Positions 7,901-62,465 of a stretch of 64,000 nt of DNA are shown one piece after another. The notes under the pieces are model-generated. The model made no database searches. It saw only the letters and a program-made list of their open reading frames with translations, and had not been told where the DNA came from. The translations under genes were made by a program, and so were the position numbers. This stretch comes from Auanema rhodensis (taxonomy: Eukaryota; Animalia; Nematoda), in contig OZ059896.1 in NCBI GenBank assembly GCA_964057225.1, positions 16,244,001 to 16,308,000 of the forward strand. The letters run 5' to 3'. How positions within the stretch are numbered: the first letter of the stretch is position 1; the number at the start of each line of letters is the position of its first letter.

Positions 7901-7903
<3 letters not shown>

Positions 7904-25694: not shown

Positions 25695-25789
25695 ATTTGC
25701 ATATTATGGAAGAATGTTCCACGTGAAAAGACGTCAATTTTCAAAATCAAATGTTCCATACGTGTCCTATAAGTAGAGCGATTGACAAA

Positions 25790-26535: not shown

Positions 26536-26809
26536 CAGTTCTTTGTCTTCCAAGTTTTTAACACGATCTTTCAACGTAGTGCATTCGTTTGTAAGGAATT
26601 CCAACTGCACCACAGTCTTCTTTTGCATTCGTTCGGAGGATTCAAGAGCTTTACTGGCAGCCTCATATTTTATCTGTAAATCATTATTGTCCGCTTCTAG
26701 GGATGCAATCCTATCGGTCAATTCCTGATTTCTTTTCATGAGTGCTTCCATACTTGCTATTGCTTCCTCCATCATCGGATTTATTCGTTCTTATACTTAA
26801 ATTGAAGAA

Positions 26810-29600: not shown

Positions 29601-29602
29601 TA

Positions 29603-30724: not shown

Positions 30725-33645
30725 TATTTAGGAATCTTTGGAAAATTTTGTGCCCGCTAAACAGAGAATCCTGCCCTCTGTCAGCATGGAAGTTAAAAAT
30801 GTTCTGGAAAACAAAAATATGGAAATTAGCTCCAGTCAGGTATGGATCTCATTTAATTCTGCATATCAGCACAAATTGCTTGCTATTTTTCTACATTTTT
30901 TTATTTTAGCTGACTAGTCTTGCCCGAAGTGTCAGCACCCACATCAAGTCGGGTACTGGTAAAAGATCGCCAAGCGATGTCAATAAACTCGTTGATAGAT
31001 TCGCGAATGCGAGTATGAAAGTGGAGCACATGGAACCAATCAAAGTGGAAAGAACAGGTTAAATTAAGTTTTTATCAATTTAATAGTAATGATTTTTTAG
31101 ATCGTGGTATTGCCTTCTGCCAGATTGTCGGATACCCGACGGCTTTCAAGCATTTTGTGCTTGCTTGCCAACGGTTGAAGATATGAACGACCATCTTCGC
31201 TTTGTGGACAATCTCCAATACATGCCTAAACAGGAGGCAAAGGAAGCATTTGGTGAGTATTTTGTAATTGAGGCATTGAAACTTTTTTAATCTTCCAGTG
31301 CGAATTTTGAATCAAGGGAATGCTTCCGGAGCTCTACCAACAATAGGAAGTATCATAATGATTGATACTACATTTTCAATCAGTAGTGGCGAATACGTCA
31401 CTCTAGCCCTCGGAGTTTCGGATATGTTCACGTAAGTATAGATTATATTAGTTACATCTTTTTTTATAATGTTAATTTAGGTCAAAAAAATCTGGTAAAA
31501 ACGCTGGCATATTGCTTGCATGTATGGTACATAGTACCAAAAACGCTGGCAATCATGAAGCATTCTCGGCATATTTGAACAAGATGCTATCTCAATATGG
31601 AAGGAACAAAAAAGTAGCTGGTTTGTGCCATGATGGTGAAGATGCTTTTAAAGCATACAACACTGTAAGAAATTTTTTTACATAAGGTTTAATTGTTCTT
31701 TATTTTAGGGATCATTTTTAAAAAATGCTATGCCGCTAAGATGTTCCGTGCACCGAATGGAGAATATAAAAAGCACATTCGGCAAAGACGATGATGCTGA
31801 GAGAAAGAAAGATATCCTGCATAAAATATTCGGGAGAAAAAAAGAGGTATACTTGATATTGTTTTTGAACACTATTTTTATGTTTTAAGACTGAATATGG
31901 AACAATCATGAGGAAAGGGGCTTTATCGTCCCTAACTCGTGACGAATATGAGAAGAAAATGCAGGATATTATTATGAATTGTGGAGAGAAAACTCGACAA
32001 TGGTTTGTTTTATCAAAATTTTAACTAATGTTTTTTGGATTTAGGCTCATTGTTAATAAAGAAGATTTGTATCAAACAAATAGTTTGATTCAAAAATTAA
32101 GAGCTGGGCAAAGCCAGCAATTTTTTTCCACTAACTTGCTAGAGTCGGGAAACGCTCAGTTAAAAGCAAGAATGCCTCATCCAATTCCTGCTCACCAGGT
32201 TTTAGAAAAAATGCTGCAATTACATGAAGGTAACTAAACTATTAAAAAAAAAGAAAAAATTAATTTCATTATAGAAGAAATAAAAGATCGAATTGGAGCC
32301 ATTCATCAGAAATCGGAAAAACTGGCCACTCACTTTCATGTTGAGAACCATGAGTGGTTAGTAATGACACGTATTGAGAAAATGAATAAACTCAAACTTT
32401 TTAGTTTGAATGACTTCATTTTTGAAAATACGTTGTCGAACTATCCCTCATGGATGAGTGAGCCAGTAGGAACTAATAATGCTGACGTGTTTTTCGAAAC
32501 TGTTCAGCGTTTGGAGGTATTTCCTGCTGCAAAAGCGGGTATATATTTTACCAAAGACAGTACTGGAGCGTAAGCTGAGAAAATTCGTAATAAAGTTTAT
32601 TATTAATTTTTCAGATTGGTATGCGTCAATGAAGTTAATAATGAGCTTGTATGCTCAAGCCCAGGATGTTCTCAGCGAAATTGTCCGAAACACGCTCTAT
32701 GTCATCACAGGTTTCTTAAATTTATAGTACAATTAAGTATATTTTTGTTTCAGACTAGCTGTTTTCATATCATTGGAGAATGAAAATAAAACAAATGCAA
32801 TTGTTGAAAACCTGGAACGGAAAAGGAACGAGAGAACAGCAAGAGAAGTGCAATCCGAGCAATTGAGACCAGCTGACGGGTCTAAATTCGATCAGAGACG
32901 ATTTGGTTCGCAATTCTCCAAAACGAACCGTAAAAGAAACTACTATGACATGGAGTAGGCTTAACACTACTGATCCCGAAATAATTTTTTATTACAGTAC
33001 GACAGCCGATTCAGATGAAGAGATATTGATTCCAGGCCCATCAGGCCAACAGGATCGCTACTACTCACTTTCATAAAGTGCCGTAGCTACAAAAATCGGA
33101 TACTAATAAATTTGAATAAGGTGAGTGAACTAACATATTTCAAACTATATATTTAATTTTATTTACAATATTGATCCATCACACACTCTCACCAAATTGA
33201 GAATCATTATTAAAAGGTCAGTTAGAACGATTGCTTAACATCTTTAATGAAAACTTTTCATGTATGCAACTGCTCCACAAAAAGAAAACATGCGAAACGG
33301 AAAGTTTTTTAAGAATTAAATTTCGATTCTTTTAACACTTCATGTTCAACTAATGTAAAAATTTTTTTACTGATAGTATAATCTCTAATTTGAAAAAAAC
33401 ATAAAATTTCAAACTACAACTTTTGTATTTTGGTATACTTAGTATAAAGATATTTTTTTTGTAAACTTGGTATACTTGATAAATTTGGTAAACTTGGTAA
33501 CCTTGTAAAGTGTTCATAAATTAATATTAGGTATAATTTGGTAAACCTGGTAAACCTGGTATGCCATATAACTATGGTAAACTTGTCTATTGCGTGGTAA
33601 ACCTAGTTTGGTAAACCTAAAGTTTGGTAAACTTGTCAGTTTGCT
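30724..33645 (+). mobile_element. Intron-containing MULE-like transposase gene with subterminal repeats
   Basis: Exon motifs IMIDTTF, LCHDGEDA, LRCSVH, TNLLESGN; ~45-nt introns; repeated (t)tggtaaac at 33460-33635. Confidence 0.65.
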
Positions 33646-34045: not shown

Positions 34046-34501
34046 GCTTACGACCATACCACGTTGAAAGTCCGATCTGGCAAGTCAAGCAACGTTGGGC
34101 CTGTCGCTTGACAACTGGACTTTTACCTCCAAGTATCAGTCCAAGTATGGAGTCGGTTCGTATGAGTGCTGTGTTATGCGTTAAAACAAGTAAAATGAAG
34201 AACGATTTATTCAACGAAATACAACAAAACAGTAAAGTGAAAATAGCAAGTAGATTGATTTTAGAATTTCCTAGAAAATCCTAAAATCAATTCAAAATTG
34301 GTGAGACATGAGTTTTAACCATCTGGTTCTCCCTTTTATAGGGAGGCACCAGATGGATCAAGGGAGGAGAATGTTTTTGCAAAACAAAGTAAGAATGAGT
34401 GAAATCAGTATGAAACTTACATATTCTTTCACGTCGACCGTGACAGGGCCCGGTTAGTACTTGGATCGGAGACGGCTTGGGAATCCCGGGTGCCGTAAGC
34501 T
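34046..34501 (+). pseudogene. 5S rRNA interrupted by a solo LTR (also carries a 12-nt deletion)
   Basis: 5S halves flank 34102-34445. Confidence 0.92.
34102..34445 (-). mobile_element. BEL/Pao solo LTR, 344 bp
   Basis: TGTC..GACA termini; GGGCC TSD; same as the LTR at 51246-51589, which abuts a PBS. Confidence 0.93.
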
Positions 34502-35073: not shown

Positions 35074-35214
35074 AGCTTTGCGCAGTGGCGATAACGTGAC
35101 CAATGAGGCTTTGCCGAGGTGCGTTTATTGCTGGTTGAAAACTTTTCCCAATTACCCGCGATATTCCCTGAAACATGGGTGATATACGCAATTTTTGAAT
35201 GCCTGATAAGGCTG
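35074..35214 (+). ncRNA. U4: U4 snRNA
   Basis: Consensus copy. Confidence 0.95.
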
Positions 35215-35267
35215 ATTTGCATATTATGGAAAAATGTTTCACGTGAAAAGACGTCAATTTTCAATAT

Positions 35268-35816
35268 CGTTCCATATTGGTTCCTAGGGTTCCGGCTAGG
35301 TAACCATATGGACTTTAATAGTGTGAATGCCATTGTAAAAGTAACAGAGAGTAGAGGAAAAGAAGTTTATTCAGAATATGGAAATACAATTATAAGAGCA
35401 AAATACAATAATCAAATAAATGAAACTACATGTTATGAGAAAGCCAACCTAGTTGCTTTCTCAGGGGTTTATATAGCAAAATATTAATTACAAATATAAT
35501 TGAATTTATACAAAAAGTAGTTCAGGTCTAGTTTCTTATTGAATTCTATTAACCAAAAGTCGGTTGACGTTGTCAACCGCCTTCTTTATAAGACACGTAT
35601 GGAACATGCCTTATATTGAAAAAGTAGCTGACCTCAGCTATAAGAAATTAGACCTTTTAAGGAAAAGAAACAAAAGAGAAAAATATATATATAAATGAAT
35701 TAGAATTAGAATACTAGAATAGGAATAATAGTGTAATAGGAATAATATTAAAAAAATGAAAACAATATAAAAAGAAAAAGAAAAGAAAAGAAAAGAGAAG
35801 AAAAACTATGAATTCA
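35268..35816. repeat. Left terminal inverted repeat (~550 bp)
   Basis: cgttccatattggttcc...ctatgaattca. Confidence 0.93.
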
Positions 35817-36514
35817 TGAAATATCTTAAAGACATTTATTCATATTGCAACACTTACCCATAAGTCATCTTGAAAACATCTTATCACAAGCTAATTTTGA
35901 AAATCTATTCATAAATCATTCTGAAAACATTGATTCATAAACAAAACCACTATTCTTGATATCTAACGCATTTTTATGAGAAAGCCCCGTAAGAAACAAT
36001 ACCAGACATTCTCGGGACATCGCGCGGAGGCGTACACTTTTTGATATAAGACGCGCAATCATTTGAAATTAACCCTTTTTGGTCCCATATGAGAATTAAA
36101 GAATATTTTGAAGTTGAGTGGTCCCACCTAGCAAGACCCAGGGGAACAGAAGTAAGGTTAAAAGGGAACGTCTTTTGGGGGTTTGCTTAGGTAAGAGAAG
36201 TCTGGAAAAGTGAGTATGAGAAGCCTGTGTACCTGATCTTGTCCATGACTGAAAAGGAGCAATACACAGACCACTGTCTCATATCTCATGCCTCTTCGAG
36301 AGATAAGAACTTGGTCCTTTGCTAAAGGTCACACGTAGTTGCGGACTCGTGTATGAACCTGACCAGGCTATTCTCCGACTAGAGACCCGCTGCAGGCTGG
36401 CCCCCTGACAGGAACAGGAGTCGCGCATACCAACCCCATATTGTCTCTTACGTTTTGTATAATATAAGCTCAGTCTTCGTTGGTTAATAATTTCCTTCCA
36501 GGAAACCAACAAAG

Positions 36515-39500
36515 ATGGCTGACGCAGCGAATCAAAACCCTCCGCCGGGAAATATTGCCCAAAATGCTACGAATAGCGCAGAGAAAACTCAGACAGTGGA
36601 AGCAGCACTGCATAGAAACCAAAGAAAAAGAGGACCACCGGATGCATTCCGACCAGATGCGAAATATCCGAAAACGAACGCGAAATCAAAGAAATTACCC
36701 CCTATTCCGGGTACACCGCTAACTGCTAAGAAACTTTATACTACTGCTATTAAAACTACTAGGCATGCAATTAGCTTGAATAAGAATAAAACATCATCCA
36801 GTAAATCTACGCCCAAACGCTCTTCTCACTCTCCAAAAACAGTTGTTAATACCGGCACTAACACTTGTCCTCCAAATCACACTTCTCCTCAACGCCTTGT
36901 TCAAACCGCAAATGCGGAAATCCTCACCTCTCCTATTCCTAGAAACTCTCCCTCTTCCACTGATCAATCTTTGCACGGGCACTCTCTGTCTCCTGTCTCT
37001 TCTTCGTCAGACAATAACGTAAATTTGACTTCGAATGTTACAGAGCAGAGAAGTCGCCCTCAAATGGCAGAGCAGATGGAGCAAGACAACTCTCCTATTG
37101 CAAGAGCCCACAACGTTTCTATTCGCCATCACAAACCTACGCTTTATGATGGATCGGTTCCATTCAACCTCTACATGCAAAGACTAGAAGGATATTTCGA
37201 TGCCCTTCAAGTCCCTATTGCCGAGAGACTTTCCCATCTCTATCTACTTCTCGGAACGGATAGAGCCGCTGAAGCTCTTCGAACTATACCAGCAGAAGAC
37301 TTACGCCAGGGATGGAACCATGTCAAACGCATACTATCGGAGAAATTACAACCTCCAGAAAAGAGAGATGCAGCATTCACAAAACTCACTCATTTGAAAC
37401 AAGGAGAGCACGAAACGGTACAAAATTTCGCTCAACGCTGCAGAAACCTTGCCTACGAATCATGCAACATGGACTCGACAGCCGATGAAAGAATACTACG
37501 AGCTTCATTCTTAGGAGGACTACGAAAGACTTTAAGAACACATGTCAATAACCGCAGCCCTATCACCTTTGATGCAGCCGTGACTATTGCCGAAACTGTG
37601 GAAGCTGACGAGGATCCTTCGCTCTTGGTCAACAACTTGATTAAAGACGTGGAACAACTAGAGATTAATAACGGTCTCATAAACCACATGAGAGCATCAC
37701 AACAGGAGAAAATCTATGACGGATCACAAACACACCAATCAAGAACATTCTATGGAAATCAATCAAGACCACAACACCCACAAGAGCAATGGAATCAAAG
37801 AAGAGGAGGATACCGCTCACCAAGATACCAAGAGGATCGACAAAATAACCGTCACAACTTCAGACAGGATAACAGAAACAATGGATATCAACGAGGATAC
37901 AACAATTATCGTAGCCCCCAACGGTACGATAGATACAATGATCGATACAACAGCAGAGGAAACGATCGATATGATAGCAGAAGGAATGATCGACAGGAGC
38001 ACAGAGGAAACGACCGATACAACCGCGGAAACTGTCCTGATCGCGGATTTCAACAACGAAATCGCAGCACTTCATATGGACCACATAACAGGCACAGAGA
38101 TCGCACAAGAAGCCCCAGCGTCCGTTTTCACGTTAACAAAGTAGAAAAGGAAACAGTCAAAACAAAGAAGACACTTCCGTTCATACCGCTATTCTTATCC
38201 GTCATCGCCCTATCTATGATACCTTGCCAGGCAGACAACACCTATCAACTCTGCATTGGCAAACGAGGAGGTATTTTCCTCGAACCACCTCGCCCAACCA
38301 CCTGCTCAGACTATGCACACAAGGACGGAGTCGAGATAAAAACAGTGGAACTATTCGCAGAAAATATGAATTACAAGGAATGGGAAGCATGGAAATGCGC
38401 CAAGGAAATCTATGAAACGTGCGCCCACGACTTATTCTTCATCAGGGAAAATAACGTTACATTACTCCGAATAGAACCAGCCACTCCACAAGAATGCCAA
38501 ACAGCCATTCAAGAAAGACGACACATGGATAACGACCTCAATCGCGAAGCACCAGGACTATTCAAAGCCCCTATGCCATCTAATACACAATCAAAATCGC
38601 TTTGGGCATCCTCTTGCACAACCAAGTCAAGATTTACCTTAGAAAGAGGAATGATGACTAGCCTACACGATGACACTATAATCTCCGCCTTATTCATCAA
38701 CACTGAAGGATGCATTAAGCAACAAGGAGTATGCAACACCACCAACGCAGTTATCACATGGATCCCACCCAATGATCATCGAAATTGCGACTCCACGACA
38801 TTAGGGAAATTCGAAGCACTAATCAACAATGATACTGTATTAATCTCGGAAATACAAGGAGCATTCATTCTCAAAAACAACACGCCAGACCCTACAGCTA
38901 CAAGATGTATGAATACAAGCATCTACTCAACTGATAGTGGTACGTACATTTCCATCAAGGATTTAAAAACACACCGACGTCAAAAGAGGATGGCACCCCA
39001 AGAATACCCTACGAGATTCTTCAATATCACTATCTACAAATCACTTCGCCTCACAGACAGTTCTACAGGTATACTACCTATGTACCAGACATATCGAAAT
39101 AGGAAAAGACTGGACAACGCTTATAACCTTATGGAATACCTCAAGACATCTAGCGTACACATAGGTTTCATCAAATTCCTACAACTAGATTCATCAAAAC
39201 TGAAGAACCGACTCTTATGGCACAACTACACTGACATCAACATGGTTATCCTGCACACACTTGCAGAAGCCGAGATTCGACTTTCTACGAAAATTGCCAT
39301 CGAACACCTACTACCATCAGAGATCACGGCAAAACTCAGCAAGCAAATCACTATCAGCGACTTTGCCACACGTCTACTCAACTACGAAGGCGATTATCTC
39401 GACCGAGCAAGACAAATAGCAACTGAAATAGCTCACACACCTACCACTCTGGCAACAGGAGAGACTATTCCATCAATGGAGGACTATCTGTACCAACTGT

Positions 39501-42500
39501 ACCCACCCAGGATGACAAAACTGCCTAGATCACGCACTGACACACAGTTCTACACCCAGATGGATCAAATACAGGAGTTTCTTGATTATCTAGAGCAAAA
39601 CAATCGTCTAACTCGGATATCAAAAGAACAAAGAGAGACAGAAAATAAGAAATGGGCAGATCTCACAAAACAGGCAAATTCGTCAGCAATCGTCTTTCCC
39701 AACTATACCCTCATCTTCAACGGACACGCACAAAATTATGGGTTGCCCAAAAATCAACCTACAATCAGACCTATCACGGATGAAGACAGCAAATTATTTC
39801 AACAAGCATATCTTCAGCTCATTGAGTCACCTGGTGCTAGCCCCACAACCACCACTACTACAACCACCACAACCACTACATCGACTACCACAACAACTGC
39901 CCCGACAACTACTACTCATCGGACGTCTCCACCTCAACCTACAACTACACCAAGGAGATATTATTATTACCAGAGTACAACAACTCCAGTAACTCCACCA
40001 CCACGTCCTCTCACCACCACATCCCGCAGGGAATCTACTAGGACACTTCCAACAACTCGGACTACTACAAAGCGAGCAACAACGACCCAACCGATTGAGG
40101 AAATCAAATCTCACACTGGATCACAAGCACACCTCAATTTCCTACGAACACGAGCAGATATCATTCAAAAATACGACGATCAACTACGCCAACAAGATAC
40201 AAGGTCCCACCTCCAATACTCTACGTCAAAACTAGAGGAGGAAATCTTACAATCTTTCCAAATAACAAAGAAAAACGTATGCAGAATGCAAAATAAGCAG
40301 CTACTTACCTGGTGGGCAATCCTGCAGATTAATCCGACTATAGGAATTCGCACTATGCTTCGTCGACAGGATATTTCAGCAAAGTTTGTTGGAGAACATC
40401 TTATTTACGTCATGCCATGCACCCCTGTACAAGTAACACGTGTATACTCGGATCACAAACGAGACGATAAATGTTACCTGGAGACACCGGTAGACACGGA
40501 ACATCACGGAAAACTCTTCATCACACCAGGATCAAGAGATTTAACACCATTTGCCCACATCATAGCATGCGATATGGCTACATCAGATCCCTACAGAGAA
40601 AACAATCAATGGATGAAAGATAATTCAACATTGAATGTGACTAACTTCTCATTTTCGGATGAACTCACATCTGTAAAAATTGATCACATTAAGTTTAACA
40701 ATTCCAACATATTTTCAAACCTCACGGAGTCAACATTTCCAATGGCACTGGCTATTTCCTACGGCTCTAGCCTAGCATCTTTACAAGCAACTATGCCAGG
40801 AAAATTGAAACCAGTCTTCAAACATTCTGGACTATCCAATCTGAATCCAATAGGAATTATAGGAGGAACAGTTGGAACGACATTAATGATAGCAGATAAC
40901 ATATCAAACAACGCGGAGAAACAAATCACAAATTTCTTTGGATACATAGGAGAATCAATTACAGCATGGATACTAAGGACACTAGCTATTATTGGAGCAA
41001 TCATCGTCACAATAGGACTCATAACTGTTACTATTTGGGCATTAAAAATATATGCATGTACCACAAGGATACCAATCAATCAAATCACATTCAACGAACA
41101 AGACGAAGAACCAAGAGGAGAGGACAAACAATTCGAATTAAAACCACTAGTCACTTCTCAGCAAGAGAAATTATATACAAGAACCTCTCGATATGATCCT
41201 GACGCCCCACTATCAGATAATGACTTTTTCGCCTATCTACCACGGTACGCTATGAAAGAATCAAGGATTAACTACATCGGAGGATCACGACTACCTTTCG
41301 TACCTCTCTCCATTCACAATCAGATCTTTACTGCTTTATGGGACACAGGAGCTTCTATATCATACATGAAGGAAAGTACATTTCAACAACTACCGGCAGC
41401 AACAATGGTTATGGAAAAGACAACAGCCATTGTAGCAAACAAATCACGATTTTCTTTCCTGGGCTACACAAGAATCCCAATTATTATCGGGAAGACAGAA
41501 ATCGAGCACAAAGTACTGATTTCTGCCAACAACCACTGCCCAGCACCAATATTATTAGGAATAGACTTCATAGAAGCTCTCAACAAAATAGGAATAAATA
41601 CATCTTTACGACCACTACAAAATTCACTACTAATTGGAGACACAATAGTACCTTTAGCACAAGACTACGCGCCATGGACTGAGAACCACACGATAGCACA
41701 CGTCGTAAGCCTGGAAACTAAACAGTTCTACCCAGGAGAAACCAGATCGCTTACATTGGAAGTAGACGATCCCGCCTCTTACGAACAAGCTTTCATTAGA
41801 AGCTCACAGCGGACAGGAAAAATGAGTTTCGCCCCTACTACTTTCACCCCAACGGGATATGGAGTTCAGATATTTGCTACAAATATCTCTCCAGACACAA
41901 TTGTAGTACAGACAAATCAAGGCATTGGAACAGCTTACGCTATCCCGAAAAACACGGAGGAGCAAAAAGGACAATATGTGCCACCAGAAGCAAGATGGGA
42001 AGATCAACTACCATACTTCCCAGAGGACTTTATAAAAGACCTCGATGTAACAAACACCATCTTTACTCAGCTAGAGAGACAACAGTTAAAGAAAATAGTG
42101 CTCAGAAACAAGGAAGCTTTCTTAAACGAGGATCGCAATATTGGACTTTTCAAAGGACCAGTGGAACATAGCATCCCGATCATCGAAGGAAAAGTTCCAT
42201 CTTTCAAGATCACGTACAGAATACCTCTATCACAACAAGAAGAAGTAGAAAAACAAGTGGAGGAAATGTTAGAACAAGGAATAATTGAGCCATCTTTTTC
42301 TATGACTACCAGTCCCGTAATATTGGTCAAGAAAAAGGATAAAACGTACAGATTTGTGACTGATTTTCGAGCACTCAACGCAATAACGCAAAAACAAATC
42401 TACGTTATATCTAACATTCAAGACATCTTGGACCTAGCAGCCGGAGCGCGTATCTTCAGTAACTTTGATCTAGTATCTGGATTCTTTCAAATCCCTCTTA

Positions 42501-45355
42501 GATCAGAAGATAGACACCTCACCGCATTCACTACTACGAGCGGAACTTATCAATACTGCAGAATGCCGATGGGACTCTGCGGAGCTCCACACACATTCCA
42601 AAATGCTGTACGATATTTACAACAACACGTACGATGCAAGCTCTTCGTCTATCTCGACGATCTACTTCTCATATCGGAATCAACGACGAAACATTTACAA
42701 GATATCGACGAAGTACTGAACGCATCAGCAGAGCTAGGATTAAAAATCAAGCTTAAGAAATGTACCTTTGGACAACAAGAAGTCAAATTCCTAGGATTCA
42801 TTGTTGGACACGAAGGAATAAAACCAGACCCTCAGAAAGTAAAAGCAATCCAAGATTATCCAAGACCGAAATCAATAACAGGAGTTCGAGCATTTATGGG
42901 AGTTGTGAACTACTTTCGCAGATTTATTAGAAATGCCGCAGGCATTGCGTCACCACTTTATGAGCTCACGAAAAAGGATACAGCTTTCAAATGGGGAGAT
43001 GCAGAAGAACAAGCATTTCAACAACTTAAACAGATACTCTGTCAAGCTCCTGTACTACAAGCACCTATAGCAAAACGACCTTACGTCATTGAAAGCGATG
43101 AAAGTATAATTGCAGTTGGCGCAGTACTATTACAGGCTAAAGACGACAAGGAACCACTTCACCCAATTGCATTTGTCAGCCGAAAACTGAACAAAGCCGA
43201 ACGGAATTACCCGCCAATTGAAATCGAAGCCCTAGCACTCACTTTCGCAGTGCATCAATTTCGGACTTACATACTAGGCACACCAATAAGAATCATTACC
43301 GATCACAGGCCTCTTACTAGCCTCATGACAAGAAAAGATCTCATTGGCAGGCTAGCAAAATTTCAAATCGTATTACAAGAATACGACATCGAGATAGTGT
43401 ATCGCCCAGGACGTCTTAACAGCGTCTGTGATGCACTTTCACGATATTTTGAAGACGAAGTCAACGAAGCCAAGGAAAGAAAGAAGAAACCAAAAGAAAC
43501 TCCTACACACAAAATCTCGACTATTTCAACTATTACGGACCTTCGGACCATTCAAGGCAATACAGAATGGATCATGGAAACAAAAGAAAAGATTCGGAAC
43601 AAAACAGCAGGAAGGCAACTAATGGATCGATATATCGTTGTGAACGACGCTCTGTATGCAAAACCCAAAACAGCTTTACAAACTCCGCGAGCCATTCTAC
43701 CAAACGATCCAGCAATCACAATACCAATTATAGAAAAATTTCATAAAGACCCAATTCTCGGAGCACATCTTGGAATCAATAAGACTCAAGACTCCATTTT
43801 GCGACGGTACACTTGGACAGGAATACAGGATGATATCACAAGATATGTGAACAGATGTCTCGACTGTGCAAAGAGGAAAAATAACCCACATGAAGCCACA
43901 GTTGAACCAATGAGAAACTTCCCAACAGTGACACATCCATGGGAACGAGTTCACATGGACATACTAGGACCATTACCTAGAACTGCAAAGGATAATAGAT
44001 ACATTTTATCTATACAGGACGCATTTTCCAAATGGATTATAGCGATACCATTAATTCGTCAGACATCAGAAGAAATAGTATCAGCTATTATGACACACTT
44101 ATTCTATGTCTTCGGACCCCCAAAGAAAATCATCACAGACAATGGATCAAACTTTGTCTCACACGAATTCAAAAGCATGTGCGATAATCTTGGATCGGAA
44201 CATCACACAACTATGCCATACTACAAAAACGCAAATGGTCAAGTGGAACGACTACACAGAACACTGGAAGAAGCATTAACTTCCTACGTTAATGACGACC
44301 AAGACAATTGGGATATTATTCTACCAAAAATTGTTTTTACGATGAATCGACTACCAAACGCTACTACTCGCACACCACCCTACGACTGTCTGTTTGGACA
44401 AACAGCTCGGTTACCAATAGATAAGGACTTAGAAACTCCAGGAGCCACAATCAAGAACGCCCCGGACTTACACGAGAAGATTCATGAAAGGATAGAGTTG
44501 AATAATGAAAGAATGAAGAAGAAATACGACGAAAATCACAGGACGCAGGAAAGAGAGATCTTCGTGGAAAATAGAGCACTCGTCAAGCGAGCAAAGCCAG
44601 CAAATAAATTACAAACAACAAGCGATGGACCATATATAATCAAGGAAATAAAAGGAAATAACGTAATATTAGCAGATAGCGAAGGGAATACGATTATAGC
44701 TCACAAGAATAATATAAGATACTTTCCACCCGACGATAACAACGTCGAAGAAAGCGAGCACAACAGAAACGACTCCGCACCCGCCATTTATAGCGACGGC
44801 TCACAGCAGGATACGGAAAATACGCGCGCTAAAAATAGCACGCCCACCGCAACATCAATCTCTGATTCAGAAAGCGACAACGAGGACGAATTCTACGAAC
44901 AAAGCCGACCTTCAATAACACCACAAGAAACAATAGCACCACAGGAAATTACGCGGGAAACACAACAGGACAATTATCAACCAGAAACCGGACCGAATAC
45001 GGCAGACAAGTCAGCTACGGACAAGGACGAAAACAACTTATTTCAACAACTTGTCGATAAAATTGGAGAAGAAACAAGGCAAGAGCTCTATGAAGAAAGA
45101 CGTAAAGAGATACCCACAACCAAAAGATGGAGCTCAGCCCTCAAGTTGGCACTTGGAATAGAAGACAAAAATCCTATAACCGCTCCAAAACCATTCCACG
45201 TACCAATAAGGTACAACAGCGTGATACCCACCTTAGAGTCTAAAAACAGGCTCACACGCTCTCAGATACCTGATGCTCATTTCAATTCTCCAAAAACACC
45301 GGTTGTACGAAAGAAACGACCTTCAACAGTGATTGGAGCAACAACAACCATTTAA
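36515..45355 (+). CDS. Gag-Env(gB/class III-like)-PR-RT-RNaseH-IN polyprotein, 2946 aa
   Basis: Gag (PTLYDGS, LKQG..ETV..F..R); signal peptide at ~38174; Cys-rich ectodomain; RRQKR; Thr-rich tract; INP...ISAKFVGE..PC.PV..CY; TM at ~40960-41050; PR LWDTGAS; RT YLDD; RNase H; IN HHCC plus D/D/E. Confidence 0.93.
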   Translation: MADAANQNPPPGNIAQNATNSAEKTQTVEAALHRNQRKRGPPDAFRPDAKYPKTNAKSKKLPPIPGTPLTAKKLYTTAIKTTRHAISLNKNKTSSSKSTPKRSSHSPKTVVNTGTNTCPPNHTSPQRLVQTANAEILTSPIPRNSPSSTDQSLHGHSLSPVSSSSDNNVNLTSNVTEQRSRPQMAEQMEQDNSPIARAHNVSIRHHKPTLYDGSVPFNLYMQRLEGYFDALQVPIAERLSHLYLLLGTDRAAEALRTIPAEDLRQGWNHVKRILSEKLQPPEKRDAAFTKLTHLKQGEHETVQNFAQRCRNLAYESCNMDSTADERILRASFLGGLRKTLRTHVNNRSPITFDAAVTIAETVEADEDPSLLVNNLIKDVEQLEINNGLINHMRASQQEKIYDGSQTHQSRTFYGNQSRPQHPQEQWNQRRGGYRSPRYQEDRQNNRHNFRQDNRNNGYQRGYNNYRSPQRYDRYNDRYNSRGNDRYDSRRNDRQEHRGNDRYNRGNCPDRGFQQRNRSTSYGPHNRHRDRTRSPSVRFHVNKVEKETVKTKKTLPFIPLFLSVIALSMIPCQADNTYQLCIGKRGGIFLEPPRPTTCSDYAHKDGVEIKTVELFAENMNYKEWEAWKCAKEIYETCAHDLFFIRENNVTLLRIEPATPQECQTAIQERRHMDNDLNREAPGLFKAPMPSNTQSKSLWASSCTTKSRFTLERGMMTSLHDDTIISALFINTEGCIKQQGVCNTTNAVITWIPPNDHRNCDSTTLGKFEALINNDTVLISEIQGAFILKNNTPDPTATRCMNTSIYSTDSGTYISIKDLKTHRRQKRMAPQEYPTRFFNITIYKSLRLTDSSTGILPMYQTYRNRKRLDNAYNLMEYLKTSSVHIGFIKFLQLDSSKLKNRLLWHNYTDINMVILHTLAEAEIRLSTKIAIEHLLPSEITAKLSKQITISDFATRLLNYEGDYLDRARQIATEIAHTPTTLATGETIPSMEDYLYQLYPPRMTKLPRSRTDTQFYTQMDQIQEFLDYLEQNNRLTRISKEQRETENKKWADLTKQANSSAIVFPNYTLIFNGHAQNYGLPKNQPTIRPITDEDSKLFQQAYLQLIESPGASPTTTTTTTTTTTTSTTTTTAPTTTTHRTSPPQPTTTPRRYYYYQSTTTPVTPPPRPLTTTSRRESTRTLPTTRTTTKRATTTQPIEEIKSHTGSQAHLNFLRTRADIIQKYDDQLRQQDTRSHLQYSTSKLEEEILQSFQITKKNVCRMQNKQLLTWWAILQINPTIGIRTMLRRQDISAKFVGEHLIYVMPCTPVQVTRVYSDHKRDDKCYLETPVDTEHHGKLFITPGSRDLTPFAHIIACDMATSDPYRENNQWMKDNSTLNVTNFSFSDELTSVKIDHIKFNNSNIFSNLTESTFPMALAISYGSSLASLQATMPGKLKPVFKHSGLSNLNPIGIIGGTVGTTLMIADNISNNAEKQITNFFGYIGESITAWILRTLAIIGAIIVTIGLITVTIWALKIYACTTRIPINQITFNEQDEEPRGEDKQFELKPLVTSQQEKLYTRTSRYDPDAPLSDNDFFAYLPRYAMKESRINYIGGSRLPFVPLSIHNQIFTALWDTGASISYMKESTFQQLPAATMVMEKTTAIVANKSRFSFLGYTRIPIIIGKTEIEHKVLISANNHCPAPILLGIDFIEALNKIGINTSLRPLQNSLLIGDTIVPLAQDYAPWTENHTIAHVVSLETKQFYPGETRSLTLEVDDPASYEQAFIRSSQRTGKMSFAPTTFTPTGYGVQIFATNISPDTIVVQTNQGIGTAYAIPKNTEEQKGQYVPPEARWEDQLPYFPEDFIKDLDVTNTIFTQLERQQLKKIVLRNKEAFLNEDRNIGLFKGPVEHSIPIIEGKVPSFKITYRIPLSQQEEVEKQVEEMLEQGIIEPSFSMTTSPVILVKKKDKTYRFVTDFRALNAITQKQIYVISNIQDILDLAAGARIFSNFDLVSGFFQIPLRSEDRHLTAFTTTSGTYQYCRMPMGLCGAPHTFQNAVRYLQQHVRCKLFVYLDDLLLISESTTKHLQDIDEVLNASAELGLKIKLKKCTFGQQEVKFLGFIVGHEGIKPDPQKVKAIQDYPRPKSITGVRAFMGVVNYFRRFIRNAAGIASPLYELTKKDTAFKWGDAEEQAFQQLKQILCQAPVLQAPIAKRPYVIESDESIIAVGAVLLQAKDDKEPLHPIAFVSRKLNKAERNYPPIEIEALALTFAVHQFRTYILGTPIRIITDHRPLTSLMTRKDLIGRLAKFQIVLQEYDIEIVYRPGRLNSVCDALSRYFEDEVNEAKERKKKPKETPTHKISTISTITDLRTIQGNTEWIMETKEKIRNKTAGRQLMDRYIVVNDALYAKPKTALQTPRAILPNDPAITIPIIEKFHKDPILGAHLGINKTQDSILRRYTWTGIQDDITRYVNRCLDCAKRKNNPHEATVEPMRNFPTVTHPWERVHMDILGPLPRTAKDNRYILSIQDAFSKWIIAIPLIRQTSEEIVSAIMTHLFYVFGPPKKIITDNGSNFVSHEFKSMCDNLGSEHHTTMPYYKNANGQVERLHRTLEEALTSYVNDDQDNWDIILPKIVFTMNRLPNATTRTPPYDCLFGQTARLPIDKDLETPGATIKNAPDLHEKIHERIELNNERMKKKYDENHRTQEREIFVENRALVKRAKPANKLQTTSDGPYIIKEIKGNNVILADSEGNTIIAHKNNIRYFPPDDNNVEESEHNRNDSAPAIYSDGSQQDTENTRAKNSTPTATSISDSESDNEDEFYEQSRPSITPQETIAPQEITRETQQDNYQPETGPNTADKSATDKDENNLFQQLVDKIGEETRQELYEERRKEIPTTKRWSSALKLALGIEDKNPITAPKPFHVPIRYNSVIPTLESKNRLTRSQIPDAHFNSPKTPVVRKKRPSTVIGATTTI

Positions 45356-45577
45356 TCAAAAATAGAAACTTTTTTGGGAAAATAACTTTATTAATTAATT
45401 TTTTTTTATTAATTTACAATAATTCATTCTATCTGCTACCCAAACAACAAAAACAATGTTTTCCCCAATCATCAATCTTAATATCTATGTATCACAAAAT
45501 ATATACTTACCTATTTTTTTTCACCCTATATAAGCTCAAAATTCACCTCAAGCAGAAAAACTCCCAGCACCACAAGA

Positions 45578-45817
45578 ATGGCACTCGTCTTCCCTCCACC
45601 AGCCTGCGAGACACCTATCGCGATGATCAAGGAAAAGTGGATCAAGATACATTCGCTCCAGATAGAACTACAACAACTGGAGACAACAAACAACAGGACT
45701 AAAAAGATAAGAATCCTCCAATCATTTTCGGAGAATTTAGCCAGAGTTACTCTATTAATAGAGACTCTGGAAAGGTTACAATGTTCATGTAACAATGATG
45801 AAGAAGAGATGGCCTAA
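45578..45817 (+). CDS. Accessory ORF A (helical, coiled-coil-like)
   Basis: ATG ORF inside the element; homolog at 28456-28827(-). Confidence 0.55.
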   Translation: MALVFPPPACETPIAMIKEKWIKIHSLQIELQQLETTNNRTKKIRILQSFSENLARVTLLIETLERLQCSCNNDEEEMA

Positions 45818-46213
45818 ATGGCGCAAAACTGGTCCGAGGCCACTGCCCGCACCAAGGCCACCATCAACAAACTACGCGAAGATCTAGGCTATCCAGCCTC
45901 CGAAAATGTAGCTAGCGCGGATCTCATCCCAAGATGGGCCGCGGAAGAGATCCACAAGAGCTGGACAGAAGAAAGTATGATGGAATCGACTAACCAGTCG
46001 ATTAGGAAGGCGGGAGACCTGATCAGCCAGGCCTTAAGGATACTAATGGCGACGCGCGCCACCACTCCGGACCAGAAAAGAAAGAAAATGATGATAGCAG
46101 GCCAGGCGACGGAACTGCTGACAGACGTCAGCCTGTTCCACATATGGACGGTCGCCGACCGGCAACCCGCGACCGACTTCCAGCTGGGACAAATCGAGGA
46201 GGAAGAAGGATAA
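45818..46213 (+). CDS. Accessory ORF B, unknown function
   Basis: Abuts ORF A (TAA-ATG), GC-richer coding-like composition, ends just before the right TIR. Confidence 0.55.
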   Translation: MAQNWSEATARTKATINKLREDLGYPASENVASADLIPRWAAEEIHKSWTEESMMESTNQSIRKAGDLISQALRILMATRATTPDQKRKKMMIAGQATELLTDVSLFHIWTVADRQPATDFQLGQIEEEEG

Positions 46214-46226
46214 CAGCTGCACGAGG

Positions 46227-46773
46227 TGAATTCATAGTTTTTCTTTTCTTCTCTTTTCTTTTCTTTTTCTTTTTATATTGTTTTCATTTTTTTATATTCC
46301 TTATTCCTATTACACTATTATTCCTATTCTAGTATTCTAATTCTAATTCATTTATATTTTTCTCTTTTGTTTCTTTTCCTTAAAACGTCTAATTTCTTAT
46401 AGCTGAGGTCAGCTACTTTTTCAATATAAGGCATGTTCCATACGTGTCTTATAAAGAAGGCGGTTGACAACGTCAACCGACTTTTGGTTAATGGAATTCA
46501 ATAAGAAACTAGACCTGAACTACTTTTTGTATAAATTCAATTATATTTGTAATTAATATTTTTCTATATAAACCCCTGAGAAAGCAACTAGGTTGGCTTT
46601 CTCATAACATGTAGTTTCATTTATTTGATTATTGTATTTTGCTTTTATAATTGTATTTTCATATTCTGAATAAACTTCTTTTTTCTCTACTCTCTGTTAC
46701 TTTTACAATGGCATTCACACTATTAAAGTCCATATGGTTACCTAGCCGGAACCCTAGGAACCAATATGGAACG
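46227..46773. repeat. Right terminal inverted repeat (~550 bp)
   Basis: tgaattcatag...ggaaccaatatggaacg; a handful of substitutions and indels relative to the left arm. Confidence 0.93.
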
Positions 46774-46834
46774 ATATCAAACTAGAACGAACGGTTGCAC
46801 TGCATACATATTCTGAAAAGAAAGGTAAGCATTC

Positions 46835-46953
46835 GCTTACGACCATACCACGTTGAAAATACGCCATCCCGTCCGATCTGGCAAGTCAAGCAACGTTGGG
46901 CCCGGTTAGTACTTGGATCGGAGACGGCTTGGGAATCCCGGGTGCCGTAAGCT
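46835..46953 (+). rRNA. 5S rRNA
   Basis: Full-length copy. Confidence 0.95.
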
Positions 46954-47373: not shown

Positions 47374-47717
47374 TGTCGCTTGACAACTGGACTTTTACCT
47401 CCAAGTATCAGTCCAAGTATGGAGTCGGTTCGTATGAGTGCTGTGTTATGCGTTAAAACAAGTAAAATGAAGAACGATTTATTCAACGAAATACAACAAA
47501 ACAGTAAAGTGAAAATAGCAAGTAGATTGATTTTAGAATTTCCTAGAAAATCCTAAAATCAATTCAAAATTGGTGAGACATGAGTTTTAACCATCTGGTT
47601 CTCCCTTTTATAGGGAAGCACCAGATGGATCAAGGGAGGAGAATGTTTTTGCAAAACAAAGTAAGAATGAGTGAAATCAGTATGAAACTTACATATTCTT
47701 TCACGTCGACCGTGACA
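47374..47717 (-). mobile_element. BEL/Pao solo LTR inside 5S (5S halves span 47306-47773)
   Basis: 344 bp; GGGCC TSD. Confidence 0.93.
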
Positions 47718-47874
47718 GGGCCCGGTTAGTACTTGGATCGGAGACGGCTTGGGAATCCCGGGTGCCGTAAGCTTTTTCTTTTTCTCACTTTCTCATCTAG
47801 TTTGTAATCAGTAGTTACCTATATGGTATACGGTTATCTGGAAATGTTTTCATTTTCCGAGACAATTCTTAGAC

Positions 47875-48664: not shown

Positions 48665-51589
48665 TGTCGCTTGACAACTGGACTTTTACCTCCAAGTATC
48701 AGTCCAAGTATGGAGTCGGTTCGTATGAGTGCTGTGTTATGCGTTAAAACAAGTAAAATGAAGAACGATTTATTCAACGAAATACAACAAAACAGTAAAG
48801 TGAAAATAGCAAGTAGATTGATTTTAGAATTTCCTAGAAAATCCTAAAATCAATTCAAAATTGGTGAGACATGAGTTTTAACCATCTGGTTCTCCCTTTT
48901 ATAGGGAGGCACCAGATGGATCAAGGGAGGAGAATGAAAAAATCAGCGACTGCAGGTTATGTTGCAGTCGTCCATGTGTGCGGGGGCCAAGCATTTCACA
49001 CAGATTCTTAGATGGTTACATCTAAGTGATCTGTGGTGGGCAGTTGTATATACTGGACAGTTGAACGAGCTATGGCCGTCGGCAGGAGTTGTTTCACAGA
49101 ATACGCATGAGTTAGGGTTCTTTAGGTTGGCTAATATAATATTGTTTTCTTTAATGAAACTCAAATCCTTTCTTGAAAGATAAGGACTATATATGTGGGA
49201 ACTGATTTTTGGTTTAGTGAGCATTTCAGTTACAATTAAATTTTTCTCTTTAGTATAGAATATTGTGTTAACTATACTTGAAACATGAGAATGTTTCATT
49301 CCTCCAATACCATGAAATGTTTTTCTTTGTTTGGATTTAACTGGTAGTTTCATCCTTTTTGCTAGATCTTCTCTGATAAAAGATCGTTGAGAACAATCAT
49401 CAAAAATAATGTTAACTTTCTCATAACTATCGCTATTGTAATTGAACAAATTTGCTTTTGCTGTTCGTAAAATTATTTGGCCTTTTTCTACGTCATGATT
49501 ACCAACAATTGTGGTTAAACTTGTGGGTTCTTCATGTGCTTTCTTGGGAACGATTGTTTGATTATTTCTAGTCTTTTCTTCATCATTACCCCTTTGTAAA
49601 GAAATGTTGGTGATGACTCCATTTCTATTCTGATTTCTTTTATTTTGGTAACAAACTGAAATGTTGTGATCATCATGACAGCTGTTGCATTTAAACTTTG
49701 GCCATGTGCAGTTTTTGCTTTGATGATTGTCTGCAAAGCATACATAACATAGCCTTTTTTCTCTTAAAATTTTCCTTTTTTCCGTTGTTTCAACAGGACA
49801 CATATGGCTATTGTGTGAATTGTTCGCGCAAAAAACGCAATTCCTTCTTTGTTTCAAATCTTTAACTTCATTCAATCGAAATTGTTTTTTAGTTTGATCA
49901 CCATCTGGATTTATAATTTTTTCATTGTTACTGAGATACAGTGATTCAGTGTTTTCAGTCATCTGTAGTAGTTTTACTTGCGCCGAAATATGTTCAATGA
50001 TTTTCTCGTGGGACCATTCAAAATTTTGTTTGATGTGAATATCTTTGATTATTTCAAATGGGAATTTATTGAGTACGGTAGCAACATAAAGCTCTTTGGT
50101 TAAAGATCCTCCCGCCGCTTGAATTTGTCGCAGCAGAGCTTTTATCTCTCTTAGCGTTTGAGCACAACTATCAGCTTGTCTTGAAGCTTTTGGCACCTTA
50201 TTCAACTTGTTGATTAGCGTTGCTGTATCAACAGCGTATGAGGAATATTCTTCCTTCAAACAATTTTTCATAAACTCATAGTTTTCTTCGGTACCAGGAA
50301 TTCCCCTAAGAAGATATTCGGCTTCACCTGATAAGGACTCACATAGGAAGTTCACTTTTTCACTTATAGAGAAAGATTCATTGTTATCAATCATTCTCAT
50401 GAATCTATCCCAGAATAAAGGGAATTTTTCCGGAGTACCGTCAAAGGTTGGAGTTTTTAATACGGGTCTTTGCAGTATTTGGTTAATCAGTCTTACTTCA
50501 TTAACATGCTGATCATGTACTACCTGATCGGGTAAACTGTTTTGTTTTTCTTGTACCTCGTTTGTACAATTTTCATATTCTTTTTCTTCTGTATATTCAA
50601 CTCTTTCCCGAAGTTGTTGTAATTCAAGTTGTATTTCCATATCTTTGATTTTTTCTTTGTTTTTATCAATGAGGTTTTTTAAGAATATCAACTTGTCATT
50701 TAATTCCAGAATTATTAACGTGGCATTGCCACGGATGTCTCCTTTTTCACCTTCTTCGATTTTTGTAAATTTTTTGTTTAATTCTTTTTGGAGCTCTTCT
50801 TCTAAAAGCTCACAAACTCTTTGAAAATTTATTTCAATGGTTTCAATTGATTGGAGTTTATTCTCCAAAATATTCAAGTAATTTTTAACTCTTGCACATT
50901 CATTCTCTTGCGCAATAATTTGATTTACCGGCTCAGACAATTCTGAGTAATCGGTCATTTTCTTATAGTTTTCAACTTTAGAATTCAGTTTATTCAAAAA
51001 TTCTTATTCTCTCCCCATTTGGAGAATATATCTTTGAGCGGAGGACATTATTTAAGCCTTCCTCAATGGATATTTCAGATTCAGCGATATTTTTATCGTC
51101 TTATTGTTTCTTGACAAGTGATTTCTTGTCAACTCGGATTTTCTACGAGTTCTTCGGAATTTATTTCTCCGGCAGTTCTATATAACCTTTGTTTTAAACT
51201 TTCCTTGTCAGTAATCAACTGAAGTATCCTGCCGTGGTCGCCAAATGTCGCTTGACAACTGGACTTTTACCTCCAAGTATCAGTCCAAGTATGGAGTCGG
51301 TTCGTATGAGTGCTGTGTTATGCGTTAAAACAAGTAAAATGAAGAACGATTTATTCAACGAAATACAACAAAACAGTAAAGTGAAAATAGCAAGTAGATT
51401 GATTTTAGAATTTCCTAGAAAATCCTAAAATCAATTCAAAATTGGTGAGACATGAGTTTTAACCATCTGGTTCTCCCTTTTATAGGGAGGCACCAGATGG
51501 ATCAAGGGAGGAGAATGTTTTTGCAAAACAAAGTAAGAATGAGTGAAATCAGTATGAAACTTACATATTCTTTCACGTCGACCGTGACA
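48665..51589 (-). mobile_element. Internally deleted BEL/Pao element inserted in 5S
   Basis: 5' LTR 51246-51589; PBS TGGCGACCACGGCAGGAT (tRNA-Arg type) 51226-51243; gag-PR ORF 48943-50997 fused to the 3' zinc-finger ORF; truncated 3' LTR 48665-48936; GGGCC TSD. Confidence 0.92.
48943..50997 (-). CDS. BEL Gag (three Cys knuckles) plus partial protease, fused to a zinc-finger fragment
   Basis: PTFDGTPEKF; CVFC..H....C; CYVC; CNSC; IIFDDCSQRSFI. Confidence 0.85.
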   Translation of the reverse strand: MNKLNSKVENYKKMTDYSELSEPVNQIIAQENECARVKNYLNILENKLQSIETIEINFQRVCELLEEELQKELNKKFTKIEEGEKGDIRGNATLIILELNDKLIFLKNLIDKNKEKIKDMEIQLELQQLRERVEYTEEKEYENCTNEVQEKQNSLPDQVVHDQHVNEVRLINQILQRPVLKTPTFDGTPEKFPLFWDRFMRMIDNNESFSISEKVNFLCESLSGEAEYLLRGIPGTEENYEFMKNCLKEEYSSYAVDTATLINKLNKVPKASRQADSCAQTLREIKALLRQIQAAGGSLTKELYVATVLNKFPFEIIKDIHIKQNFEWSHEKIIEHISAQVKLLQMTENTESLYLSNNEKIINPDGDQTKKQFRLNEVKDLKQRRNCVFCANNSHNSHMCPVETTEKRKILREKRLCYVCFADNHQSKNCTWPKFKCNSCHDDHNISVCYQNKRNQNRNGVITNISLQRGNDEEKTRNNQTIVPKKAHEEPTSLTTIVGNHDVEKGQIILRTAKANLFNYNSDSYEKVNIIFDDCSQRSFIREDLAKRMKLPVKSKQRKTFHGIGGMKHSHVSSIVNTIFYTKEKNLIVTEMLTKPKISSHIYSPYLSRKDLSFIKENNIILANLKNPNSCVFCETTPADGHSSFNCPVYTTAHHRSLRCNHLRICVKCLAPAHMDDCNITCSR

Positions 51590-51746
51590 GGGCCCGGTTA
51601 GTACTTGGATCGGAGACGGCTTGGGAATCCCGGGTGCCGTAAGCTTTTTCTTTTTCTCACTTTCTCATCTAGTTTGTAATCAGTAGTTACCTATATGGTA
51701 TACGGTTATCTGGAAATGTTTTCATTTTCCGAGACAATTCTTAGAC

Positions 51747-52829: not shown

Positions 52830-52984
52830 ATTTGCATATTATGGAAAAATGTTTCACGTGAAAAGACGTCAATTTTCAATATCAAACTAGAACGAACGGT
52901 TGCACTGCATACATATTCTTGTCGCGATAAGCGAGTGAGTTTGTATAAATTTTATCTTCAACAATTGTTTTATTTGTTTCTCCT

Positions 52985-53052
<68 letters not shown>

Positions 53053-62409: not shown

Positions 62410-62465
<56 letters not shown>

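Follow-up and report, generated by a model that had tools for sequence, protein, structure and literature searches.

The closest described relatives of the element analysed here are the nematode GAG-ENV-POL Ty3/Gypsy elements with an HSV/gB-type Env (Chary and Hayashi, eLife 2026, PMC13524379); nematode elements with a gB Env were first reported by Sacco et al. 2022, as cited in that paper. In its table, LTRs measure 173-424 bp, LTRs together with a Gln primer-binding site (PBS) are given in 8 of the 11 Caenorhabditis rows (a tRNA-Gln 12-mer is listed for Clat_4 and Ctro_1), and 20 of the 36 nematode rows have no LTR or PBS call. Inverted ends are described in other groups. Members of the DIRS-1 group encode RT and have non-identical inverted terminal repeats, as does the present element, but they are described with a tyrosine recombinase and an internal complementary region (ICR), where the element has a DDE integrase, a protease and a target-site duplication (TSD) (Malicki et al. 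2020, PMC7192593). Ginger1 and Ginger2 share with it a Gypsy-type integrase with a GPY motif, terminal inverted repeats (TIRs) and a 4-bp TSD; their TIRs, however, are given as 40-297 bp long and begin with TGTNR, the gene between them is a transposase lacking RT, and most belong to multi-copy families; that Ginger1 arose from a Gypsy element is one scenario raised (Bao et al. 2010, PMC2836005). Complex LTR-retrotransposon insertions, in which an abnormal RT switch fuses two parents and the product is inserted, are also on record (Sabot and Schulman 2007, PMC1950507); the cases presented there are from plants and consist of two elements sharing one LTR, whereas the product described below is inverted and has two U5 ends. 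Among the titles and abstract openings searched, no integrase-bearing Gypsy family with inverted ends is described.

The window, a 64,000-nucleotide stretch of the Auanema rhodensis genome (contig OZ059896.1, positions 16,244,001 to 16,308,000), carries the element within a tandem array of U4 and 5S units (Table 1).

Table 1. Features of the element and its insertion site (window coordinates)
Feature	Position	Strand	Evidence or remark
U3 start of sister-family LTR, joined directly to array spacer	25752..25788	+	score reached by 2/300 shuffles
U4 snRNA gene, left flank	35074..35212	+	Rfam RF00015, 117.9 bits
Left ATAT copy, 4-bp target duplication in U4-5S spacer	35264..35267	.	empty site 52879-52882
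Inverted LTR copy, 340 bp	35268..35607	-	U5 end is left terminus of element
Inverted copy of final ~207 bp of 3' UTR	35608..35816	-	arm alignment
Inner junction, 8-bp palindrome TGAATTCA (contains GAATTC)	35809..35816	.	partner 46227-46234
5' leader without tRNA-Gln PBS or sense LTR	35817..36514	+	
Single ORF Gag-Env(gB)-PR-RT-RH-IN, 2946 aa from first ATG	36515..45355	+	
Retrotrans_gag domain	37256..37525	+	PF03732, E 2e-5
Predicted gB-type envelope	38168..41062	+	Pfam, PDB match, hydropathy, BLAST
Protease	41300-41581	+	Pfam, motifs
RT	42326-42805	+	RVT_1, E 7e-34
RNase H	42992-43384	+	Pfam
Integrase zinc finger	43724-43882	+	Integrase_H2C2
Integrase core	43931-44224	+	rve, D-D-E motif
Small ORF, 79 aa, no family	45578..45817	+	no Pfam
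Small ORF, 131 aa, no family, stops just 5' of right arm	45818..46213	+	no Pfam
3' UTR portion of right arm	46227..46433	+	
3' LTR, 340 bp, TG...CG	46434..46773	+	TATATAA 46565, AATAAA 46669
Right ATAT copy, 58-61 bp upstream of 5S gene	46774..46777	.	
5S rRNA gene, right flank	46835..46953	+	Rfam RF00001, 108.2 bits

A sequence-only reading had described an uninterrupted ORF of 2946 aa with protease, RT, RNase H and DDE integrase, and this was borne out by the Pfam matches (Retrotrans_gag, aspartyl protease, RVT_1, RT_RNaseH, Integrase_H2C2, and rve) and by the DTG, YLDD and D-D-E motifs. Between Gag and the protease, as in the nematode GAG-ENV-POL elements, lies a predicted gB-type Env. It contains a signal-like hydrophobic stretch (aa 552-574), an RQKR site and a Thr-rich insert; a PF00606 match (aa 1231-1311, E 2e-6, below the curated cut-off of this family), a stretch with transmembrane-like hydropathy (aa 1480-1516) and a match to the PDB gB structure 8y48_A (E 2e-4) are also present, and BLAST matches to the env region were found in 11 of 26 relatives. 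The two small 3' ORFs belong to no Pfam family, and their Atlas matches are nameless, with recognition below threshold. The Env, these post-pol ORFs, the LTR inside the arms and the identity of the U4-5S array had been missed in the sequence-only reading.

An RT phylogeny, proposed earlier as a check, was reconstructed from 27 RT-RH rows exclusive of named reference elements. The window protein forms a five-row clade (100/100) with four Caenorhabditis proteins (P0001-P0004), nested in an 11-row clade (100/99). Its RT-RH is 61-65% identical to the Caenorhabditis members of the GAG-ENV-POL elements, the order Gag-gB-PR-RT-RH-IN is the same, the LTR of 340 bp compares with the published range, and a tRNA-Gln primer site occurs both in the published relatives and in the family of the window element. 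The element is thus, as far as its sequence indicates, a member of the nematode GAG-ENV-POL Ty3/Gypsy group with gB-type Env. In its family, the U5 end is CG rather than CA and the LTR is not preceded by a purine tract. Unlike the published elements, the window copy has neither a sense 5' LTR nor a primer site and carries an inverted 3' end instead; rather than an intact member of the group, it is a derivative that has become defective.

The inverted arms, noted earlier as ~550 bp long, measure 549 bp (left, 35268-35816) and 547 bp (right, 46227-46773). The left arm and the reverse complement of the right are 96.6% identical, in an alignment of 557 columns including ATAT, with nine mismatches and four gap events, which upholds the earlier argument against a simple assembly mirror. 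The termini of the element read CGTTCCATA...TATGGAACG. The right arm consists of 207 bp of 3' UTR followed by the 340-bp LTR. This unit recurs in reverse complement as the left arm, so that a U5 end forms both termini. A composite transposon of two MITEs and a Gypsy element nested in a DNA transposon were both rejected, as both arms derive from the LTR and UTR of the element itself. The LTR signals are confined to the + sense of the right arm, where the AATAAA lies 104 bp from the end. The start of the LTR matches the sister-family end that adjoins the spacer at 25752, an ordinary U3 insertion end a few bp nearer the 5S gene. The last 33 bp of the 3' UTR (46401-46433) are common to the sister family and occupy the position expected of a plus-strand primer; loose contig ends occur at 35586 and 35640, around the UTR part that the sister family shares.

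The earlier statement that no direct repeat, clear PBS or PPT is present holds: within 35201-46850 no direct repeat exceeds 21 bp (every one with E of at least 1.7), the tRNA-Gln 12-mer has no match in the element with up to two mismatches allowed, and no purine run of at least 10 nt stands immediately 5' of the LTR. The leader contains no TATA motif. A degenerate PBS or ICR in the leader was rejected, as neither the likeness to the U5 hairpin nor the two TGGTCCC sites (36080 and 36119) rose above shuffles. The score of the leader against the inverted LTR was reached by 3 of 300 shuffles, in one of seven tests and in AT-rich DNA.

Copies of the family were compared in four public sequencing runs (X1, X4, X5, and X8), the first three of which represent three studies; the results rest on contigs, from a listing that covers 24 of the 59 loose ends and 32 of the 669 pieces. 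One of the four runs may be the source of the window itself. In X1, X4, and X5, the U5 outer end (35268) continues into the tRNA-Gln primer site: the loose end at this position ends in the exact 12-mer published for Clat_4 and Ctro_1, although the join spans 22 letters only and is seen in contigs rather than reads. No PBS join is present among the matches listed for X8. In X1, the PBS-joined contig has a depth of 749, the LTR body 823 and diverged side contigs 49-73, values that do not represent copy number. The join indicates that the parent family has ordinary LTR-PBS ends, which is supported further because the closest relatives carry LTRs and a tRNA-Gln primer site. The family contigs break at the LTR. 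Ordinary LTRs in the family were what the sequence-only reading had named as speaking against its proposal of a retroelement with a different replication route; given the U5-PBS join and the LTRs and Gln PBS of the relatives, this proposal of a new retroelement type is not supported by the sequences compared. Searches of viral_contigs by protein, alignment and LTR pattern yielded no related loci; 80 loci from a metagenome scan, all generic Gypsy pol, were dropped as family members, since none of them matched the env region or the arms.

The window copy is probably a single rearranged copy of an ordinary LTR-bearing, tRNA-Gln-primed GAG-ENV(gB)-POL Ty3/Gypsy family, produced by two-template reverse transcription and inserted by its own integrase with duplication of ATAT. 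While a minus strand was being extended into the leader, synthesis would have jumped at TGAATTCA to the minus strand of another family copy that differed slightly in sequence; as an alternative first step, two U5-ended cDNAs might have been captured in one intasome and their free ends joined at the same palindrome. Both termini would be valid integrase ends, hence the precise insertion. Lacking the 5' LTR promoter and the primer site, the copy has probably reached a dead end; that its ORF is open may reflect a fairly young age.

A precisely integrated fold-back cDNA had been suggested earlier. An aberrant cDNA is indeed the best reading, but a fold-back of one molecule, in which the minus strand at the leader copied its own 5' part and identical arms diverged after insertion, fits less well than two templates and is distinctly improbable. 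It would yield the exact layout and a true TSD, and slight decay is possible, with 13 of 209 well-conserved columns altered in the window protein (7-13 in closer relatives). Two templates are nevertheless favoured, since one substitution and one indel that distinguish the arms are also variable between copies of the family in other samples. In X5, two alternative contigs over 35447-35506 (depths 1002 and 269) follow a contig that stops at 35476; this stop points to a variant at 35477, where the arms differ. The extra base of the right arm near 35357 is a minor form in X8. At 35381 and 35547 the main contigs carry the left-arm form, and at 35357 and 35396 they depart from it. X1 and X4 have no cover beyond 35640, which was given no weight. 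A single molecule would moreover require later gene conversion and an ORF left open through 0.5-0.6% neutral change per arm; the no-stop probability is 0.07-0.15 if all five to seven arm substitutions are post-insertion.

The ATAT duplication reported earlier was recovered on both sides and matches an empty array unit; the empty allele itself also exists, 6 bp from the position first given (~52873). In the 14 other array units with a full spacer anchor, the site reads ATAT in one and AAAT in 13, including both neighbours. The left flank equals the empty ATAT unit over 295/295 bp; the right flank does so for its initial 423 bp, spanning a later BEL/Pao insertion. A 4-bp ATAT agrees with the 4-5 bp TSD expected of Ty3/Gypsy; parses of 0 bp, 2 bp (the TA proposed earlier as equally valid) and 5 bp are formally equal, since ATAT reads alike on both strands. 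Within a tandem array, finding ATAT at either end is no proof of a single integration. Two normal copies in opposite orientations could have entered the same ATAT site, in neighbouring units or homologues, after which deletion or recombination fused the antisense copy, at its 3' end, with the leader of the sense one; the apparent duplication would follow from the repeated target. This route, which we regard as unlikely, accords with arms that look like different templates, with the palindromic ATAT, and with the many LTR insertions in the array, including that of the sister family a few bp away. Near-identical head-to-head copies are prone to deletion. However, it requires that the same 4 bp, in a rare variant that both neighbouring units lack, was hit twice independently, and the flanks together represent the haplotype of a single ATAT unit. 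This match of both flanks to the one empty ATAT unit, along with the sister-family U3 start at the spacer, supports the reading of a single rearranged copy.

The palindrome at the inner junction is not accounted for by ordinary microhomology, which needs none. The chance of such a junction is ~0.6-0.75% per position; in the 3' non-coding region, a GAATTC-containing palindrome is available at 8 of the 1070 positions. Its presence would suit a chimera or mis-join of antisense and sense copies, e.g., at a GAATTC restriction site, but such an artefact is very unlikely: an assembler join on 8 bp is not expected, each arm has another GAATTC at which no break occurred, and the right junction (U5-ATAT-spacer) is also present in two contigs of X8. 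A single fold-back chimera should enter the inverted right flank, whereas the left flank is U4-spacer in forward orientation; a fold-back of the MDA type was rejected on this ground. The outer left junction is not bridged by any contig among those listed. In X4 and X5, the ATAT-unit contigs stop at 35268, which could mark either the left junction or a neighbouring variant, and they were not used as evidence.

The inverted form might also be a replicating sub-lineage that needs no primer site and either restores its ends from the arms or moves as DNA; of the readings considered, this is the least probable. An open ORF with catalytic motifs and a clean TSD would be expected of it, and the many published nematode elements without an LTR call are compatible with it. 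Three of the four substitutions private to one arm are A to G on the + strand, like paired-RNA editing (a weak, post hoc observation), but all four are plain transitions. The main continuation of U5 is the PBS in three of the four runs, and neither a U5 end at a new site nor a second inverted copy appears among the 24 of 59 loose ends listed. The leader, as stated, lacks a TATA motif, and no ICR was found (the score of the leader against the last 60 bp of the element was reached by 86 of 300 shuffles); no internal match of at least 14 bp to the termini exists. Pfam detects no recombinase family of the DIRS kind in the element, with rve and H2C2 instead. In contrast to the Ginger and Polinton elements, which have TIRs and no RT, it encodes an RVT_1 domain; compared with Ginger, its arms stem from an LTR that was duplicated recently and enclose a full Gag-Env-Pol, and one such copy was seen.

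As a one-off copy, the element is clean natural evidence that DNA with two U5 ends can probably be inserted precisely by a Gypsy integrase. It shows a possible route from an LTR element to a TIR-flanked integrase gene, one of the scenarios raised for Ginger1. Its family is also an addition to the GAG-ENV-POL group in which the U5 end is CG, the purine tract is missing and insertions lie a short way upstream of 5S genes. The Ty3/Gypsy replication model is unchanged, and the finding would gain much greater weight only if several such copies exist. If a two-U5 form did propagate, the 5' LTR and primer site would have been replaced by an inverted 3' end in a Gag-Env-Pol Gypsy lineage that is still spreading; such a lineage would stand, still active, midway between LTR retrotransposons and TIR integrase elements of the Ginger kind, and the 20 published nematode elements that have no LTR call could include some with two U5 ends.

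The inverted ~550-bp arms noticed in the sequence-only reading of the element (35268-46773) are borne out, as are its uninterrupted ORF and its ATAT duplication with an empty allele. Positions 35268-35816 are 96.6% identical to the reverse complement of 46227-46773 (self-BLAST and pairwise alignment). The arms differ by 9 mismatches and 4 gap events, of which 5 substitutions and 1 indel fall in the outer 340 bp. The ORF (36515-45355, 2946 aa) is open throughout. ATAT is present at both outer ends, and the insertion site is a spacer of a tandem array, with a 5S gene starting 58-61 bp downstream. One of the 14 other array units with the full anchor carries ATAT; this empty unit shows 0 differences from the left flank over 295 bp and 0 from the right flank in its first 423 bp. 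The element contains no direct repeat longer than 21 bp, and the tRNA-Gln primer motif (a 12-mer) is absent from it with up to 2 mismatches allowed. The sequence thus confirms the inverted-arm structure, which is an unusual one.

Two pieces make up the right arm: 3' untranslated sequence of 207 bp, and a 340-bp unit (46434-46773) beginning TGTTCCATA and terminating in TATGGAACG. In plus sense this unit is laid out U3-R-U5 like an LTR, with TATATAA at 46565 and AATAAA at 46669; no TATA motif occurs in the left arm in plus sense. In a related Ty3/Gypsy family of the same array (the sister family), the copy of the unit's start adjoins the spacer at 25752 (a score reached by 2 of 300 shuffles), so this start is a normal insertion end. 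Together with the LTR signals, the join indicates a normal 3' LTR. In the place of a 5' LTR and primer site, the element has its own 3' end in inverted form, and it terminates in U5 on both sides. The left arm's inner junction coincides with the palindrome TGAATTCA (chance about 0.6-0.75%). The terminal ~45 bp of the LTR (35270-35312, 46729-46771) are predicted to form a candidate strong hairpin. The 33 bp preceding the LTR (46401-46433) also occur in the sister family, although the interior of its LTR is diverged; they include a T run and a short hairpin, without a purine tract, and constitute a candidate non-canonical plus-strand primer signal.

Of the words sampled from 35268-45200, 57-87% are present in each of eleven public DNA runs from three studies. 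Four of the 14 listed runs (X1, X4 and X5, one per study, and X8) were compared as contigs rather than reads over 35150-35655, a stretch that takes in the spacer and the inverted LTR and ends 48 bp past it, short of the inner left junction; the comparison holds among the 24 of 59 loose ends and 32 of 669 pieces listed, and one of these runs may be the window's own source. In X1, X4 and X5, a contig on the arm's outer end continues for 22 letters, the last of which are the exact tRNA-Gln 12-mer of the published nematode elements Clat_4 and Ctro_1; read in LTR sense, the U5 end runs straight into the primer site. This join is not a rare side branch: in X1 the primer-site contig reaches a depth of 749, where the LTR body has 823 and diverged side contigs have 49-73 (depth giving no copy number). 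In X8, two contigs carry the right end's U5-ATAT-spacer join, and no primer-site join is found among the rows listed. The family of the element has a normal LTR-PBS join, which speaks against the proposal of a retroelement type with a different replication route; a lineage replicating with inverted ends is very improbable.

At 35381 and 35547 the main contigs agree with the left arm; at 35357 and 35396 they depart from it, the right arm's base being the prevailing one. A two-way split in X5 is placed at 35477, a position differing between the arms (the variant letter itself not being given). In X8, the additional base that the right arm has near 35357 occurs as a minor form. From this mixed agreement, the arms seem to derive from different family copies. 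If all 5-7 clear arm substitutions post-dated insertion, the probability of a stop-free ORF would be 0.07-0.15; gene conversion may have followed insertion. The earlier suggestion of a fold-back cDNA with precise insertion survives in part: an aberrant DNA was probably inserted with a 4-bp duplication, but folding back of one molecule is distinctly unlikely, as the arms seem to come from two copies.

Probably, reverse transcription switched strands from one template to another and yielded DNA with a U5 end on both sides, or two U5-ended DNAs were captured and joined later; the resulting substrate would have two valid integrase ends and be inserted with a 4-bp duplication. What is observed is the layout, the absence of a primer site, the LTR-PBS join of the family and the match of the flanks; the mechanism itself is inferred. 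In plant LTR elements, products of an abnormal template switch are known to have been inserted (PMC1950507). Insertion of two copies in opposite orientation at one repeated site, followed by deletion, would make the duplication automatic; this route is unlikely. An artefact is very unlikely. With switch or capture, double insertion and fold-back taken together, a one-off rearranged copy is very probable.

DIRS elements are characterized by a tyrosine recombinase and an internal complementary region (passages of PMC7192593); neither is found here, and this identity was rejected. Ginger was likewise rejected, as its TIRs measure 40-297 bp and it lacks RT (passages of PMC2836005), whereas the element has ~550-bp arms and encodes RT. 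The literature searched, which leaves out most subscription journals, yielded no account of a Gypsy family that has both an integrase and inverted ends. In a metagenome scan, an unrelated Gypsy locus without a gB match (L009) has an inverted pair (445 bp, 88%, at 894-1337 and 7860-8303) flanking pol, which may be a nested solo LTR or similar by-product.

The surrounding array (16536-64000; 471-bp unit) alternates U4 snRNA with 5S rRNA (17 U4 and 13 5S matches); among the 12 of 62 papers listed, no title concerns U4-5S linkage in nematodes. A BEL/Pao element, with direct LTRs of ~380 bp and a 5-bp duplication, sits in the same spacer, ~20 bp upstream of 5S. A spacer-inserted mosaic looks like captured RNA-virus sequence fused to retrotransposon pieces. 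A 344-bp insert has multiplied together with the array, forming a higher-order repeat; a BEL/Pao gag fragment splits one of its copies.

Insertions neighbouring the element in the U4-5S array
Feature	Coordinates	Strand	Details
BEL/Pao element	52920-62716		ORF 53511-61511, 2666 aa, open; C-terminal phlebovirus G2-type envelope
Decayed relative of the BEL/Pao element	16867-20482		
Spacer-inserted mosaic	25752-33645		opens with sister-family LTR start; includes BEL/Pao pieces
RNA-virus RdRp fragment in mosaic	25845-26378	-	PF02123
Sister-family polyprotein end in mosaic	29408-29209	-	
S39-like protease ORF in mosaic	29591-30724	+	
344-bp TG...CA insert	34102-34446, 47374-47718, 24324-24659, 48665-51590		interrupts 5S gene

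The polyprotein contains Gag, protease, RT, RNase H and integrase (Pfam) in Gypsy order. The Gag-protease interval matches a herpesvirus gB chain in PDB (E 2e-4) and includes a signal-like stretch, a transmembrane-like stretch and an RQKR site; the Pfam Glycoprotein_B match (aa 1231-1311, E 2e-6) is weak and below cut-off. A protein search gave 26 relatives among 6124 candidates, 7 of the 26 with PF00606; the best named ones are from Caenorhabditis, Oesophagostomum, Ancylostoma, Aphelenchus and Panagrolaimus. In the RT-RH tree of all 27 rows, the protein groups with four Caenorhabditis proteins (support 100/100). A nematode host is suggested by these relatives and by the phlebovirus-type envelopes of the BEL/Pao elements nearby. 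After pol (45578-46213), two adjacent small ORFs of 79 and 131 aa, with no family assignment, are possible accessory genes.

Nematode env-bearing Ty3/Gypsy elements, for which Chary and Hayashi (PMC13524379) cite Sacco et al. 2022, have only gB-type Env and the order GAG-ENV-POL, according to passages of that article. Its main text lacks the word 'inverted'. Among the 36 nematode rows of its Supplementary file 1, LTR and primer-site coordinates are given for 16 and none for 20; 8 of the 11 Caenorhabditis rows in its table have a tRNA-Gln primer site. The LTRs of these elements are presumed direct, their orientation being unstated in passages of the article. The element is a defective derivative of this known nematode GAG-ENV-POL group, and the evidence favours an accident of copying within a family of that group.
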